NCBI GenBank assembly: GCA_951406725.2
Contig: OX597815.1
Coordinates: 39,494,001-39,558,000, forward strand
Direction: 5' to 3'
Length of the DNA: 64,000 nt
From: Octopus vulgaris
Taxonomy: Eukaryota
Each line of letters begins with the position of its first letter. The stretch's first letter is position 1. Positions 9,773 through 37,269 of this stretch are shown here, piece by piece. The notes under the pieces are model-generated. The model saw only the letters and a list, made by a program, of their open reading frames with translations. It ran no database searches and had not been told where the DNA came from. The position numbers were made by a program, and so were the translations under genes.

Positions 9773-10793
9773 GTTTCTTTATTAGCCACACAGGGCTGCA
9801 CACAAATAGAACAAATTACAAGGTAAAGCTTTTCTTTTGAAGGTTTAAAAAAAAAAAAAAAAGGAAGGGGGAGTTTCGATCAAAAGGGATCGTAAAAGGA
9901 GAGAAAGAGGACAAAAAAAAGGGGGTTAAAAAAAGGGGGAGAGGAAAAAAAAAAGAAAAAAAAATTTGATCAATAGGGATCGTTATCACAGAAATGTCAA
10001 TATGGAGTGTAAAGGGGAGGACAGGTGAGGTTTACCCGTGGAAAGAAAAGCCTACGGAAAAGACCACGGTAACCTCGGTCAATGGAGTCACATGTTATAT
10101 TTCTTTTTTTTTTTTTTTTGCAAATAAGCAACTCTCTGTTTTCAATTTCTGGGTTCATAGGATCATGCTCAAGGTGGCTTCGTCATTCATACGTGCCATT
10201 CTTGCTACATTCACCCATCTTTTTTTAAAACATTCGCTAGACAAAACTTGCCTCTCTACTCTCACTTTCCTTTTCAAGTGGTACTTGAAGAAGTTGATGA
10301 GAGATTGACCAGAGAGGAAAGTGTTTGTCTCCAATCCTTTCAGACGCGTCCACCAGATACATTCTTTCGCCATAGCCACAAGGATGATGAAAATAGCTCT
10401 TCCTTCCCGTTTGAAGGAGGGAGGCGTGACAATATTAACGATAGACTCAGCTGATAAACCGACTCGTCCCACACGTGACAGCAGTTGTTCGACACAAGCC
10501 CACAGGTCGGAAATTGTTGGACACTGCATGAGTGCGTGCAGAACGGTTTCGTCGCTCTGACCGCATCTCGGGCAGGTCGGCCCCGTGTTTCTCGAGCCGT
10601 GTCTGTAGAGCTTATCCCGAACGGGTAGCGCTTCTCGGTAGCACTGCCAGGCCAGGGATCTCTGGAAGTTGTCCATGGGCCCTGGCCCGAAAGTCGTCCT
10701 GAACAGGCGGGTCAGGTACTCCTCGTCGACGTCCAGGTTCGCCCCGAGCTCGTCGTCGTACCTCCCCTCCACTAAACCCCTATAGAATGCTTT

Positions 10794-10794
<1 letters not shown>
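9773..10794 (-). mobile_element. 5'-truncated Tx1/L1-clade LINE (ORF2 C-terminus and 3' UTR) inside (GATA)n
   Basis: ORF 10155-10772 has the zf-RVT motif TCPRCGQSDETVLHALMQC; AATAAA at the 3' end; GATA arrays on both sides (9715-9770, 10794-10881). Confidence 0.85.
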
Positions 10795-10881
<87 letters not shown>

Positions 10882-11279
10882 CAATATATGAAGAAAATTT
10901 AACTTGTCTGAATCAGATGTGTTTATATTGAGTCCCTTTTATGTTTTAACTTAACAGTTCGTCAAATAGATTGATAAACTTCAACCAAACTGAAATAACT
11001 ACTGGATTCATATGATCAATTAAATCCTCAAAAGCAGTGCTCCAGTATGGTTGCAGTCTAATAACGAAAATCAGTAAACGAATGGAAAAGATACATTGTT
11101 AATATATCATTCTTGAGCAAGAAACAAACTTAGACTGAGTGAGTCAAGTGAACAATAAAAAAAAAAGTGCAATCGACAGAGGCAAGTTGTTACGTGTGTA
11201 TGTGTGTGTGTGTGTGCGTGTCAGTGAGAGAGAGAGAGAGAGAGATCTACGAATGCTACAAATTTGTTCCCTCCTATAG

Positions 11280-28409: not shown

Positions 28410-31215
28410 ACTCGTGATGATAACTATTGGGCGTTGTTAAAATTAACCTCTAAATCTTCATAGACATGCTTGATCAAATCCCTTTGCTGTTGACTTGAAA
28501 TTGCTGAGGCATCTCTATTAACCTCTAAATCTTCATAGACATGCTTGATCAAATCCCTTTGCTGTTGACTTGAAATTGCTGAGGCATCTCTATTACATCA
28601 TCATATAATTGTCTTTGAACATTGGGGATTCTTCCATTTCCAACTTACAATAACCAAACAGAATGATATGCCAGTCGAGCTTGAGACGTGGTTTCATTAT
28701 TGCTGAGAAAGTTTGGCACTCTCATATTAGTGGTGAGATGAAGTACTTCGCATTCGTGCCAAATTACGGATTTTTTTCAAACATGCTCCAATTAGAGAAG
28801 ACTTTTGTGCTCTTCGAACCACTAGAAGAATTTGACGGAAATCACCACCTAAATTTATCAATTTGCCGCCAAAGATCAAGTCGTTGTTCATTACATCCTT
28901 CAGTGTTCGTTTCAGCGCTTCAAATAGATAACGATGACACACTAGTGCCTCGTCCCAAACAATCAAGCGTGCATCATGAAGCAAACGGCCAGTGACATTA
29001 AGAGGAGATATTTTGCATGCTGAATAACTGTTCACCGGTATGGGCTGCTTTAATCGAGAGTGAGCAGTGCGACCTGGCTTCAATAGTGTCGCAGCAATGC
29101 CTGATGATGCTGTAGTAGCTAGTTGGTTGTTTTTACGCACATAAGACAGTAATATATTAAGAAGAAAGGTTTTACCAGTACCCCCGGGTGCATCAATAAA
29201 TATCAAATCACCTTCGTTTCTATCAATTCTCTGTTGAATATTTTCAAAAATGATTCTCTGGTCATTATTTAGCATATGGATGTTAGCATTGAAACATTCT
29301 TCTGTATTTGGATCCATCTCATCTTCATGAAGTAGAACATTATTCATTCGGAGATCATGAATAGCAGCAGGCAATCCAAAAAATATTGTACTACGGTCAG
29401 CTGACCCATGCGATGATCCAGTTCACACAGCATTTCTTTCAGGGTAATATCCAAAGCTGCTTCATGAGAAAAATTCTGTTGTCTCATTTGATGGAACTAA
29501 TCCTGGCAAAGATCTTCGCGAAACGTGTTGTATAATTCTAGTGGATGGTGAGCAAAACTGAAGAATACTGACAAACAAATTTCGTAAATCATTCACTGGA
29601 CATATAGTTCTTGCCTCATTTAGACAAAGTTCCCATTCTTGATCATTTTCTAATAGATTCATCATTTGACATGCGTGCTTAAAATTTTTGCAAGCAACAC
29701 TGTTAATTGTGATTAAATTTTCAAAGCTTGCCGCTCCTGCTTTCTGTTGAAGTAATAGTCTAAGATAAAATAGCTCCCCTTGCGATGGATGTACTGCATA
29801 CATTCTACCAATAGCTTCTGGAATATCGTCACTTTGTCTAACTCTTCTCCTCCAACTTTTATTATTGTTATACCAAGTATAATGTTATGGAAAGTCACAA
29901 CAGAGGATATCTTTTGCTAGAGGATCTTCTTCATTCATCTTGAAATATGCTGTCAATTTGATCGATCTATTTTTTGCTAAAGCTTCTTGTTCATGATTCA
30001 GATTAAACACAATCATCTGTTGATATGGCTAGTGTATCGGCAAGCATTCAACAGCAGGCTACCTTTGCTGAACTGGAAACTCAAATAATCTACAGCAAGC
30101 CTCTGACGCTCCAATATAGCGGCAATTTTCGTAATTCGAATTTTCATCCATTTGATTTTCGTTGCCAACATTAAGAGCCACGCCATCTTGTCTGTGTAAA
30201 GAAACTGTCGCATGGTCAACACCTTTTAAAACGTACTTGTAAAGATATTTCACAGCCTTAATAGATGCACAGTATTCAAGATTAATATGCGCCTCGTACT
30301 TCTGCAACAACCAAGCATTATAAGGAAATGCATAACGATTATCAACAACAATTTCTCTATTTCCAGTATGAATTGAAGCTGTGAAGCCACCATCTCGAGG
30401 GTTTCGGTGATGATATTGTAGATAAAAATCATTTCCAATTAAGGTGTGTGATATGTAATCCCTTTGATATCTTTTACTACAAACACCATTATCTTTTTCC
30501 GCAGGATCCATGTATCATGTGTTTCTTCACCAAGGAATAAAGATGTGACATTAATGGGTTTTGGGGATTAGGAAGTTCAGCCGGAAGAATTTTATCAATT
30601 TTATCAATTTCTTGCCATGTGTTGTGATGATTTTGTATTATGAATAAGAAATGGCAGTGAGGTAATCCTCTTTTTTGAAATGCCACTGTGTTCACATGGA
30701 CTCCTGATTTGATATCGTGCAATAGTAGTTGTTGCTTTAATTTAAATACTCCTGAAGTGATATCTGGTCGGTCAACCGCCGTCTGGCCCACAGAAAGCTC
30801 GTTAACTATTTCATGTCATTTCGGGTTGCATGTAAAAGTCAAAAATAAAGTAGATTTGCCAAACTTTCTATGGTCATTGTATCCTGGTAGTGTTTTTGCT
30901 ATGCATCGCGGACTTCCTGTAAATGAACTTGGCAATATATATCTACGACCTGTACGATCAATATCACCTGCAAGTATAGCATCTTGTAAGTCATTATATA
31001 AATCAGCTCTTAAGTTTGCTTGATTGTTACGAACATATCGTAGACGCATAGATTGTACTTTGGCAAATTGATCTACACAGCATTGCTGAAACACACGCTG
31101 ACCTAATTGCAATATTTTTGTATATCCTGTTCTTTTCATGATGCGATAACAATAAAATTGAACTACTGAAATTTGACGGTTGTCATTTTCATTCATTAAT
31201 CCAAATGCCACTCAT
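28410..31215 (-). pseudogene. Decayed Helitron Rep/PIF1-helicase gene
   Basis: FTGSPR, FLTFTCNPK, HUH motif FQKRGLPHCH, KYLYKYVLKG, GELFYLRLLL, Walker A FIDAPGGTGKTFL, IVWDEA, GGDFRQIL across frameshifted ORFs. Confidence 0.95.
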
Positions 31216-34150: not shown

Positions 34151-34174
34151 GTGTATATATACGTATGTATATAC

Positions 34175-34241
<67 letters not shown>

Positions 34242-34283
34242 TATATATTTATTCATATGTATATATATATATGTATATATATG

Positions 34284-34387
<104 letters not shown>

Positions 34388-34965
34388 CAGGAGTTAGATG
34401 GTGAATGTTTTATTTTTCATTCCATCGATATTTTATCTCTAATAGTGGTTCGGAATTTAACTGTCCTCTCTAGCGTGCAGTTAGTCCTATGATGGTTACC
34501 TCTTATGTCTCTAAATGCATTCTGTATTAATATGAATAATATATAATCTATTGACTAAATTTTTACACGCTAGGCCACTGGTAATGGAAATTTCTAATTT
34601 TCCCGATTAACCTTTGATATTATCAATTATTGATAATTTTGGGGATAATTTTCGAAATGAAAAAGCCGGCATATTTATTTACTGCCGACAGGGAGCTGCG
34701 CTTGCGCGGTAGATTTGAAAGATTAGAATGTATATGCACGGGGCATATACTGGATTGCATCGTGTATATATATTTAATGTAAGGTGTACCTGCTGAAGAA
34801 GTCTTCGCTAAGCAAATTATTTTATTTGCTAACAAAAAGTAAGAAACCATTGGTCCAGGAGTTAGATGGTAAATGTTTTCATTTTTCATTCCCTTCGATA
34901 TTTTATCTCTAATTTAACTGAGATCTCTAGCGTGCAGGTAGTCCTATGATGGCTATCTCTTATGT
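34388..34965 (+). mobile_element. Penelope pLTR / retrozyme-like element: 468-bp unit plus partial repeat
   Basis: 34388-34508 is repeated at 34856-34965; hammerhead motif at the unit junction. Confidence 0.65.
34789..34859 (+). ncRNA. Type I hammerhead ribozyme motif
   Basis: CCTG-CTGAAGA-[AGCAAAT/ATTTGCT hairpin; base of stem II poorly paired]-GAAACC-att-GGTC-CAGG. Confidence 0.65.
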
Positions 34966-35022
34966 GTATAAATGTACACTGTATTTATAACTATATGTAT
35001 GTATATATATATATATATATAT

Positions 35023-35078
<56 letters not shown>

Positions 35079-35252
35079 CGTATATATATATATATGTATG
35101 CATATATATATATGTATGTGTGTATATATATGTATGTGTGTATATATATGTATACTTATCTATGTATATATATATATATATGTGTATGTATATATAAGCC
35201 TGTATATATATACATATATGTACGTATATATGTATGTATATATATGTATATG

Positions 35253-35317
<65 letters not shown>

Positions 35318-35319
35318 TG

Positions 35320-35374
<55 letters not shown>

Positions 35375-35376
35375 GT

Positions 35377-36030
35377 ATAATTAATGTAGGATAAAATTTT
35401 TTTTCGGGAAAAAAATTTTATTAATGGCCAGAATATCAAAAAATACCTTTAAAGGTTAAATTTATAAATATTTACAAGATAAGGGCAGAAGAAAAATTCT
35501 AATGCCAAATATGCCGAAACAAAAAATTGTCGATAACCATTATAATTTATGCGTCTCGAAACAAACCGATAGAAATCTCTAAAAAAATTCGTTATTACCG
35601 TATTGGTCCAATTTCGGGGTTAATTCATAAGAAAATGTTCCCCTCTTCAGCGGCAAATACGCGAGATATAAGTGAAATACTTACTCATACCCATGGAAAA
35701 AGCAAGCACTAAGTCCTGAGCAGACCTAAGTACCCCAAATATATCCAAAATAGAAAAATCTTCTGCACATCTCGAGACACGTGTGATTCGAACTAGAAAC
35801 TTTCACAGAGTGATAGTATCCGGAAGTGAACACTATTCAATTTATAATTAATGTAGGATAAAATTTTTTTCGGGAAAATTTTTTTATCAATGGCCAGCAT
35901 ATCAAAAAATACCTTTAAAGGTTAAATTTATAAATAATTTATAAGATAAGGGTAGAAGAAAATTTCTAATGCCAAATATGCCGAAACAAAAAATTGTCGA
36001 TAACCATTATAATTTATGCGTCTCGAAACG
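35377..36030 (-). mobile_element. Tandem ~467-bp hammerhead-containing unit (about 1.4 copies)
   Basis: 35377-35561 is repeated almost exactly at 35844-36028. Confidence 0.75.
35595..35656 (-). ncRNA. Type I hammerhead ribozyme with canonical core
   Basis: Reverse complement TTGCCG-CTGAAGA-GGGG..CCCC-GAA-ATTGG-a-CCAAT-A-CGGTAA. Confidence 0.8.
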
Positions 36031-36180
36031 TCTCGAAACGTCTCGAATATATACATGTATGTAGGAGACCACAAGTGTACGTACGCTGCTATATGTATAT
36101 GTATGTAAGTAAATATATGTGTGTGTACATATACGCATGTATATATATATATATATATATAGATAGATAGATAGATATAT

Positions 36181-36885
36181 GAAGAGAACGTTCTAATGAA
36201 TTAACTCTGAAATCGGGTCTTCGAGATGCGTGCTTATAGTGATGAATTATATGGTTATTGACGATGTGTCTGTTTTCGGCATTTTTAGCATTGGAATTTT
36301 TTTCTTTTCCCTTGTTTATAAGTGGTTTATAAATTTAACCTTTTAGGTATTTTTTAATATGCTGGCCATTGATAGAATTTTTTTCGAAAAATTTTATCCT
36401 ATATTAGATGTAAATTTAATAGTGTTCACTTCCGGACTCTCTCACTCTATGAGAGTTTTCAGTCCGATCGCCTCGTGTCTCGAGGTATGCTGGAGAATTT
36501 CTATTTTGGATAAATTTGGGGTACTTATTCTGCTCATGACTTAGTGTTTGCTTCTTTCATGAGAATGAGTAAGTATTTCATTTATTTCTTTGCCGCATTT
36601 ATCACTGACGAAGAGAAGGTTCTTATGAATTAACTCTGAAATCGGATCCGATATGATAATAACGGAATTTTTTTAGTAATTTCTGTCGGCTTTCTTCGAG
36701 ACGTGCTCTTATATTGATGAATTATATGGTTATTGACGATGTGTCTGTTTTCGGCATATTTGGCATTGAATTTTTTTTCTTTTGACCTTGTTTATAAGTT
36801 GTTTATAAATTTAACCTTTAAAGGTATTTTTTAATATGCTGGCCATTGATAGAATTTTTTTCGAAAAAGTTTATCCTATATTAGA
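36181..36885 (+). mobile_element. Diverged tandem ~475-bp unit of the same family, opposite orientation
   Basis: ~36220-36408 is repeated at ~36695-36885; homologous to the reverse complement of 35377-36030. Confidence 0.75.
36599..36659 (+). ncRNA. Type I hammerhead ribozyme with canonical core
   Basis: TTATCA-CTGACGA-AGAG..CTCT-GAA-ATCGGATCCGAT-A-TGATAA; all stems complementary. Confidence 0.82.
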
Positions 36886-37269
36886 TATATATATATATAT
36901 GTATATGTATATATGTATGTATCTCGCACCATTCCCCTTCTTCTCTCTCTTCCTCTTGCTCCTCCTCCCCCATTCCCGTCGTCCATCTGCGACGATACTT
37001 CCGTCGTAACTGCTATCCTGTCTTTTCTCGCCCGCCTGCTAAGGCTACTGGTCGACATTCTTTCTCTCTCGTCGTCCACTATAATCCAGCGTTTGCAATA
37101 CTTTTTTCGTCTGGCGTTAACAGCCCTTCTTATCTTGTTCTCCTTGTCCTGTCTCTCACTGTTATATATTTATTTTTCCACTGTTTATATATATATTTTT
37201 TACTGTTTATATGTTTGTACTGTCGTTACTGTCTTGCTTTTTTTACCCCTCTGCGAAAAGATCTCAGAA

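Follow-up and report, generated by a model that had tools for sequence, protein, structure and literature searches.

A retrozyme copy in the Octopus vulgaris genome appears to begin at the very position where its own hammerhead ribozyme is predicted to cut the RNA, yet most copies of the same family read through that position, and a start at the cut site is probably not a dependable footprint of cleavage. The copy lies in a stretch of 64,000 nucleotides, referred to here as the window, and positions within the repeat are numbered from the first base after the predicted cut (unit 1) to the last base before it (unit 468). The initial annotation had taken the 5' end of the copy to be made by the ribozyme and to be a genomic footprint of cleavage. 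A marginal excess of 5' ends at unit 1 speaks for this claim and the reading-through by most sister copies against it, which leaves a ribozyme-made 5' end for the window copy possible but doubtful. On balance we lean to the view that the stop at unit 1 was an ordinary termination near the folded ribozyme, rather than run-off on cut RNA. Taken alone, the window copy is an ordinary, dead member of an already described class.

The copy occupies window positions 34388-34995 on the forward strand and amounts, by the window sequence and profile alignment, to 1.3 units of a 468-bp repeat. A full unit (unit 1-468, 34388..34855, 34% G+C, with 36 of 468 positions off the family's per-column majority) is followed by a partial second unit (unit 1 to ~151, 34856..34995, with an 11-bp deletion) that stops at a start site common in the family, site A. 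On the 5' side a (TA)n microsatellite (34154-34366) passes into (TG)11 (34366-34387), directly after which CAGGAGTTAGATGG begins at 34388 with the letters CAGGAG, just as the initial annotation had described an abrupt start after (GT)n. It had also reported the return of the start sequence 468 bp later after a GTC, and this too is what we find: TTGGTC followed by CAGGAGTTAGATGG occupies 34850-34869, with the GTC at 34853-34855 and the second unit starting at 34856, so that GGTC/CAGGAG is divided between 34855 and 34856. A direct repeat at 34385-34417 and 34853-34885 (spacing 468, 88% identity) is accompanied by two further blocks with spacings of 457 and 470, and the partial unit is 87% identical to the first over 138 aligned bases. 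Because the unit profile aligns as far as window 34995 (unit 151), the element extends past the end first assigned to it (34965), where it meets another (TA)n microsatellite (34992..35369), the usual 3' neighbour of family copies. Since the 5' flank ends in GTG and unit 466-468 is GTC, the 5' boundary carries 2-3 bases of doubt, the profile being aligned from unit 466; a start at unit 1 would be the simplest reading. The copy thus combines a partial tandem with (TA)n microsatellite on both sides, and has no inverted arm. The only open reading frames found in the window unit are frames that run through microsatellites. The copy is old, being ~8% off the family majority with its own ribozyme broken. 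The earlier description of a retrotransposed monomer plus partial repeat is backed by this unit-plus-partial structure of a hammerhead-bearing element.

The same microsatellite tract contains, 400 bp downstream, a copy of another retrozyme family (window 35380-36890, units of ~467-477 bp). Its two arms, at 35380-36040 on the reverse strand and 36180-36890 on the forward strand, adjoin (TA)n at their outer ends, and their compact hammerheads (~35601-35650, reverse; ~36605-36653, forward) pass our custom hammerhead descriptor.

The predicted type I hammerhead of the window copy spans 34789..34859 on the forward strand, with the cut placed between 34855 and 34856. Helix I would pair CCTG (34789-34792) with CAGG (34856-34859); the core CTGAAGA (34793-34799) leads into a long helix II (34800-34842), mispaired at its base in this copy, and then come GAAA (34843-34846), helix III as ACC-ATT-GGT (34846-34854) and C17 at 34855, the last base of the cleavage triplet GTC. 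CTGAAGA, GAAA and GTC, that is, the type I core and an NUH cleavage triplet, are all present. In the family, helix II is ~58 nt long, with an AGACUU/AAGUCU base and an 8-bp distal hairpin. At unit 454-455 the window copy reads AA, in contrast to the CT of 84-89% of copies, so two helix II pairs beside the core are broken in it, and the caveat first attached to the annotation, a poorly paired base of stem II, holds with AA standing in place of CT (CU in the RNA). Two natural copies, at loci L011 and L014, fold unconstrained into a three-way junction, the free-energy fold displacing helix I by three bases so that it enters the core; for the window copy this fold is not obtained.

At the family level the three helices, I open and II and III closed, are found together with compensatory change. 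In an alignment of 20 natural sequences from four sister families the core columns are invariant or nearly so (within the family, the majority base of each column has a frequency of 0.84-0.99), pairing holds in 87.3% of cells as compared with 16-51% when the partners are slid, and 0 of 500 shuffles match the observed values. One helix I pair is CG in 9 and UA in 9 sequences, and two helix II pairs are AU in 8 and GC in 7, and GC in 9 and AU in 8, respectively; these changes fall between sister families and represent few independent events. The covarying helices indicate that the ribozyme was kept by selection in source copies, and together with the canonical family motif they uphold the original placement of the predicted cleavage site at GTC/C. 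No Rfam hammerhead model matched the window at gathering score, and 34300-35000 remained without a match even at E<=10, as did three loci with intact motifs, the Rfam scans returning only microsatellite look-alikes of miRNA families; the ~58-nt helix II is the likely reason. Our custom descriptor gave 0 matches in 30 shuffles of the window and 45 matches in 40 of 234 loci.

The four sister families have unit 11-28 in common and diverge past the cut site, where they read CAGGAGTTAG, CGGCTGTAAAAC, CGGGAATTGAATTAG and CGGTAACAAAAT. More generally, at least four sister retrozyme families (loci L258-L277) carry a near-identical module made of unit 11-28 and the distal hairpin of helix II, and vary in helix I, in the helix II base and in the bases after the cut. 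Such a common module suggests that the families either exchanged modules or descend from source copies that diverged while selection maintained the ribozyme fold.

The family is large and dispersed. The 18-mer of unit 119-136 has 2953 exact matches in the genome against 1 for the reversed control, a subfamily-specific 18-mer (unit 60-77) has 352 against 1 for its control, and a whole-unit search returned 2618 first-look candidates in the 2.8-Gb genome. From 277 collected loci, mapping by a profile numbered in window-unit coordinates yielded 358 distinct elements, 257 of which score well; the samples discussed here are a few hundred copies out of thousands. The unit is non-coding, 34% G+C, dispersed and found in partial tandems, as expected of a metazoan non-LTR retrozyme, with a length of 468 bp slightly above the quoted 150-450 bp. 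No compared pair exceeds 94% identity, and the window family is therefore old.

Its 3' ends are sharp. Among the 257 well-scoring elements they gather at a first site, A (unit 151, n=39; 152, n=11; 154, n=9), and a second, B (unit 242, n=27; 243, n=18; 235, n=12), both TA-rich, and a run of (TA)>=4 lies within 24 nt downstream of 120 of 197 site-A/B ends, the corresponding counts being 5 out of 60 for ends elsewhere and 11 out of 86 for free 5' flanks. Expressed as proportions, (TA)n stands at 61% of site-A/B 3' ends and at only 13% of free 5' sides. Beside some free 5' ends there are other dinucleotide runs, (TG)n at the window copy and L172, (GA)n at L011, (CA)n at L206 and (CT)n at L213, which may be either compound microsatellites or filler from integration. 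A head-to-head (inverted) partner arm accompanies 171 of the 257 elements. Within 79 such pairs (loci L001-L234) there are 0 in which both arms end at the same start site; 46 combine unit ~151 with unit ~242, 30 combine one of these sites with some other position and 3 have neither. That the arms never end at the same site points to an ordered use of two sites on one RNA, since two independent primings would not yield such a rule.

Let us consider, in the light of this architecture, whether the copies could have arisen at the DNA level, as tandem duplications or satellite fragments, with no retrotransposition at all. The units are tandem, and animal satellites that carry hammerheads are known. 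The copies, however, are spread over at least 30 contigs and reach no more than ~2.4 units (52 of 257 are longer than one unit, a single one longer than two), and they combine fixed 3' ends at two TA-rich sites beside (TA)n with variable 5' ends and inverted partner arms. We consider an origin by DNA duplication very improbable.

The same features, namely 5' truncation, partial tandems, an adjacent inverted 5'-truncated copy and a microsatellite target, are those by which a Penelope-type insertion would be recognized, and all are seen at the family level. Penelope-like elements themselves are described in the same terms, with an insertion bias to (TA)n (Craig et al., 2021, PMC8557442), and the window family resembles them in each of these respects as well as in its hammerhead, a motif that Penelope-like elements have in their terminal repeats. 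A recent preprint goes further and derives metazoan non-LTR retrozymes from Penelope terminal repeats (Li, Clavereau and Pollet, 2026, 10.64898/2026.07.22.740005). The two arms ending at two different fixed sites are a rule of the window family that is not met in the Penelope descriptions compared from these two sources. Unlike Penelope-like elements, the window-family unit is without an ORF, and no sequence link to the Penelope elements of this genome was found in 8 loci and 30 flanking ORFs.

Penelope-type machinery is plentiful in the genome. GIY-YIG scored above cut-off in 148 of 150 scored places (of 6136 candidates in the genome), many of them with an identical 781-aa open frame, and an ORF at L241:1-1791 has RVT_1 followed by a C-terminal GIY-YIG; the 3' region of L241 contains tandem ATTGGTCAA...GATGACGTC repeats. 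The recurrence of the same 781-aa frame suggests that these Penelope-like copies are probably young and possibly active. Joined to the window-family unit, a Penelope ORF was found in 0 of 30 scanned flanking ORFs (103 in total), the only identities seen in those 30 being LINE, mariner and helicase fragments, and the 8 Penelope loci gave no credible unit-profile match. No Penelope ORF was found within the window. Other mobile-element remains are present there: an ORF with a zf-RVT domain of LINE type (10155-10898, reverse strand) and one with a PIF1-like helicase domain (28727-29422, reverse strand, E 2.9e-50), possibly from a Helitron-type element. To judge from the insertion architecture alone, then, the partner of the window family is likely a Penelope-type enzyme.

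What form of RNA such an enzyme would have copied can be approached through the junctions between units. Among 39 copies that span the 468/1 junction, 0 have inserted bases there and 4 have deletions nearby. Within one insertion, neighbouring units (48 pairs) show 0.115 differences per nt as compared with 0.138 for random pairs, and have 32% of derived variants in common versus 11% in controls; for the arms of inverted pairs (55 pairs) the corresponding values are 0.104 versus 0.142 differences per nt and 35% versus 13.5% of derived variants. These data fit one continuous template per event followed by later decay, a single molecule and a single source locus being indistinguishable as its origin. 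End-to-end jumps between separate cut monomers, also considered, are disfavoured by the clean junctions and by the extra derived variants that adjacent units have in common (0.32 vs 0.11). None of the sequence records that carry the family is listed as RNA. Contigs of four presumed-RNA runs carry diverged family members, and joints in them that go back 469-470 bases were set aside, since these joints merely reflect the tandem. Because most cDNAs pass the scissile bond, the template would usually have been uncut there, as in a circular or multimeric RNA.

The prediction that went with the original claim of a ribozyme-made end was a peak of 5' ends at GUC/CAGG, as opposed to a random scatter, over all copies of the unit. 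We measured stop rates by walking upstream from the 3'-most anchor of each element and counting stops among the copies that reach each position, the anchors being the first 100 places, in positional order, of the unit 119-136 word and likewise the first 100 of the unit 60-77 word. The best-scoring matches to the whole unit and to unit 40-158 had pointed to strong clustering of 5' ends in unit 1-50, which was dropped, as ranking by similarity favours full units and two-armed loci. In the position-sampled walks the 5' ends are diffuse along the unit, with a mean stop rate of ~0.006 per nt. Out of 71+46 = 117 walks that reach unit 1, 1+1 = 2 end there as compared with 0.69 expected (P=0.15; 1.7%, CI 0.2-6%), and so no peak dominates at the cut site. 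Nor are the ends scattered at random: in unit 1-10 there are 13 stops versus 7.1 expected (P=0.03), and the ten bases just 3' of the scissile bond are enriched 2-5 fold. The predicted peak at GUC/CAGG is not seen in the other copies, and the strongest single position is unit 8.

The surroundings of the cut are similarly uneven. From unit 463 to unit 10 there are 19 stops versus 11.1 expected (P=0.02), whereas unit 463-468 taken separately, with 6 versus 4.0, is about at the background rate, and unit 446-462 is depleted (3 versus 10.8, P=0.006). Further upstream, unit 405-445 has 23 stops versus 22.9 expected, and an apparent cluster in the helix II hairpin (unit 417-445) in a first sample was not upheld by these counts; unit 11-30 and unit 31-59 are also near expectation. 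Would a uniform 5' truncation, with the window copy ending at unit 1 by chance, suffice? The stop rate is indeed near-constant over most of the unit (11-30, 31-59 and 405-445), the measured rates give a 5' end a chance of 0.2-2% of falling on any one given position of the 468-base unit, and with thousands of copies unit-1 starts are expected somewhere. Against it stand the excess at unit 463-10, the trough at unit 446-462 and the spike at unit 8, as well as a control zone (unit 167-183, 100 of 151 matches listed) with just 4 definite and 3 probable ends across 17 nt, that is, 4-7 per 100 matches listed. Pure coincidence appears improbable to us.

Finer resolution comes from pattern listings, which show the 16-17 bases upstream of a conserved word and were classed by eye, some of the samples overlapping. 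Among units with an intact unit 1-18 (100 of 156 matches listed), 2 have their start precisely at unit 1, each of them at an inverted junction, a further 4 have ends at 459-465, and all others continue upstream past the cut. Units with an intact unit 11-28 (100 of 372 matches listed) include ~65 of the window family, ~47 of which read through; the ends among those ~65 fall at 466 (1), 467/468 (one palindromic pair), 468/1 (2), 1-3 (3), 4 (2), 8-10 (7) and 11 (1). When all sister families are taken together through an intact unit 8-25 (100 of 728 listed), ~84 read through, 7 end at unit 8 and 4 at 468/1. Mapping 15 doubtful cases by profile verified ends at 468 (L243, L248), at 1-3 (L244, L247), at 8-10 and at 459-465. 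The sharpest hotspot of 5' ends seen is unit 8 (window 34395 and 34863), the first base 3' of, and outside, helix I; the 7 ends there among the 100 matches listed represent 5 independent events, two of them perfect palindromic arm pairs. Many inverted junctions fall on self-complementary words, such as TGGTCCA, TTCCWGGAA and CAGG with CCTG.

Pooling all sources, definite unit-1 cases number 5 in the window family (L006, L058, L136, L191, L252) and 2 in a sister family, a marginal excess over the ~2-3 found per neighbouring position (P estimated at ~0.02-0.04, from overlapping samples), and except for the window copy all definite cases are at inverted junctions. Where C468 or further upstream bases are retained (L243, L248, L189, L192, L256, L257, L207), the end cannot derive from cut RNA. 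Copies with a free 5' end, the class to which the window copy belongs, end at about unit 459, 462, 464, 468, 1-3, 3, 5, 6, 8, 8, 8, 10 and 10, a flat spread over unit 459-10 within which no second definite unit-1 start was found.

How do these observations bear on cleavage and run-off? According to the reading first proposed for the window copy, hammerhead self-cleavage would have left the template with a 5'-OH end at unit 1 and the following site intact, and reverse transcriptase running off that end would have left a fossil of cleavage. The window copy indeed begins at unit 1 without upstream unit bases, the family hammerhead is canonical with helices that covary between sister families, and a half-processed dimer cut at its 5' site would give the same product. 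The marginal unit-1 excess, with 2 stops in the 117 walks, 2 starts among the 100 matches listed for unit 1-18 and the further cases above, points in the same direction, and so do the enrichment of ends just 3' of the cut and their depletion in unit 446-462. Most cDNAs, however, passed the cut site, the top single-position pile-up is at unit 8 and not unit 1, and ends that retain C468 or more (L243, L248, L189, L192, L256 and others) occur roughly as often as unit-1 ends. The free-ended copies yielded no further definite unit-1 start; the window copy would require a half-processed dimer, while the other unit-1 cases are first-pass copies of less than one unit; and the GTG flank leaves its 2-3 bases of doubt. 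We regard run-off on cut RNA as a possible but doubtful origin of the window copy. With a similarly tentative standing, the idea may be put in a broader form, in which a few percent of the insertions of the retrozyme superfamily, the window copy included, would be run-off copies of hammerhead-cut RNA, the pile-ups at unit 8 and unit 1 would bracket helix I of the cut ribozyme-product complex, and genomic 5' ends would record self-cleavage in the germ line.

Our preferred explanation, ordinary termination near the folded ribozyme, can be stated as a sequence of steps. A Penelope-type enzyme would nick the target at (TA)n, in what we take to be target-primed reverse transcription, and the DNA end would anneal to the retrozyme RNA at one of its two TA-rich sites, unit ~151 or unit ~242. 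The enzyme would then travel 0.1 to 2.4 turns along an RNA that is intact at the scissile bond, either a circle or a multimer, stopping at a near-constant rate with extra stops on meeting the folded ribozyme. The local excess of 5' ends might be caused by stalling where helix I and helix III have their 3' edges, at unit 8 and unit 468/1 respectively. The window copy would have begun at the first site (unit ~151), crossed one uncut junction and halted at unit 1. Several observations count against this explanation. The small unit-1 excess, outside the window copy, is at inverted junctions, and a jump from a template end is what cut RNA would give. In addition, the surplus of ends begins only 3' of the cut, in unit 1-10, and is not seen 5' of it, as a cut template likewise predicts. 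The absence of a joined Penelope ORF from the 30 flanking ORFs scanned, and of a credible profile match from the 8 Penelope loci, weighs on the same side.

Among known systems, the closest are the metazoan non-LTR retrozymes, described as non-coding repeats of 150-450 bp and low G+C with one type I hammerhead per unit, arranged in short tandems and present in many dispersed copies, for which a model has been put forward in which the RNA cleaves itself and is ligated into a circle, and a non-LTR or Penelope reverse transcriptase then turns this circle into tandem cDNA (Cervera and de la Peña, 2020, PMC7229834). The window family agrees with that description in being non-coding and low in G+C, in having one type I hammerhead per unit and in being without an LTR, PBS or PPT. 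It departs from it in a unit of 468 bp, just over the stated range, in a helix II of ~58 nt and in sampled copies of no more than ~2.4 units. Plant LTR retrozymes, which are non-autonomous, hammerhead-bearing and spread via circular RNA (Cervera et al., 2016, PMC4918200), are more distant: their type III hammerheads inside LTRs, 4-bp target duplications and Gypsy-type mobilisation (PMC7229834) have no counterpart in the window family. A search of literature listings returned no report that deals with retrozymes of cephalopods or maps the insertion ends of retrozymes in animals.

A different comparison is offered by elements in which a ribozyme does set the 5' end. R2 and L1Tc are long coding elements with an HDV-like ribozyme at the 5' end, and their full-length copies regularly start at the cut. 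The idea that a self-cleaving ribozyme sets the 5' end of the reverse-transcribed RNA is common to these elements and the reading first proposed for the window copy. In the window family, unlike R2 and L1Tc, most copies read through the cut site and starts there are rare.

Irrespective of how the window copy itself came to its end, insertion ends tell which form of the RNA was copied, and the family-wide picture has some value in this respect. The fine structure of the 5' ends has peaks at unit 8 and 468/1 and a trough at unit 446-462. The read-through seen in most copies argues against linear cut monomers as the main template, and, combined with the sharp starts at two TA-rich sites, it fits the published, as yet unproven model in which circular or multimeric retrozyme RNA serves as the template for a Penelope-type enzyme.
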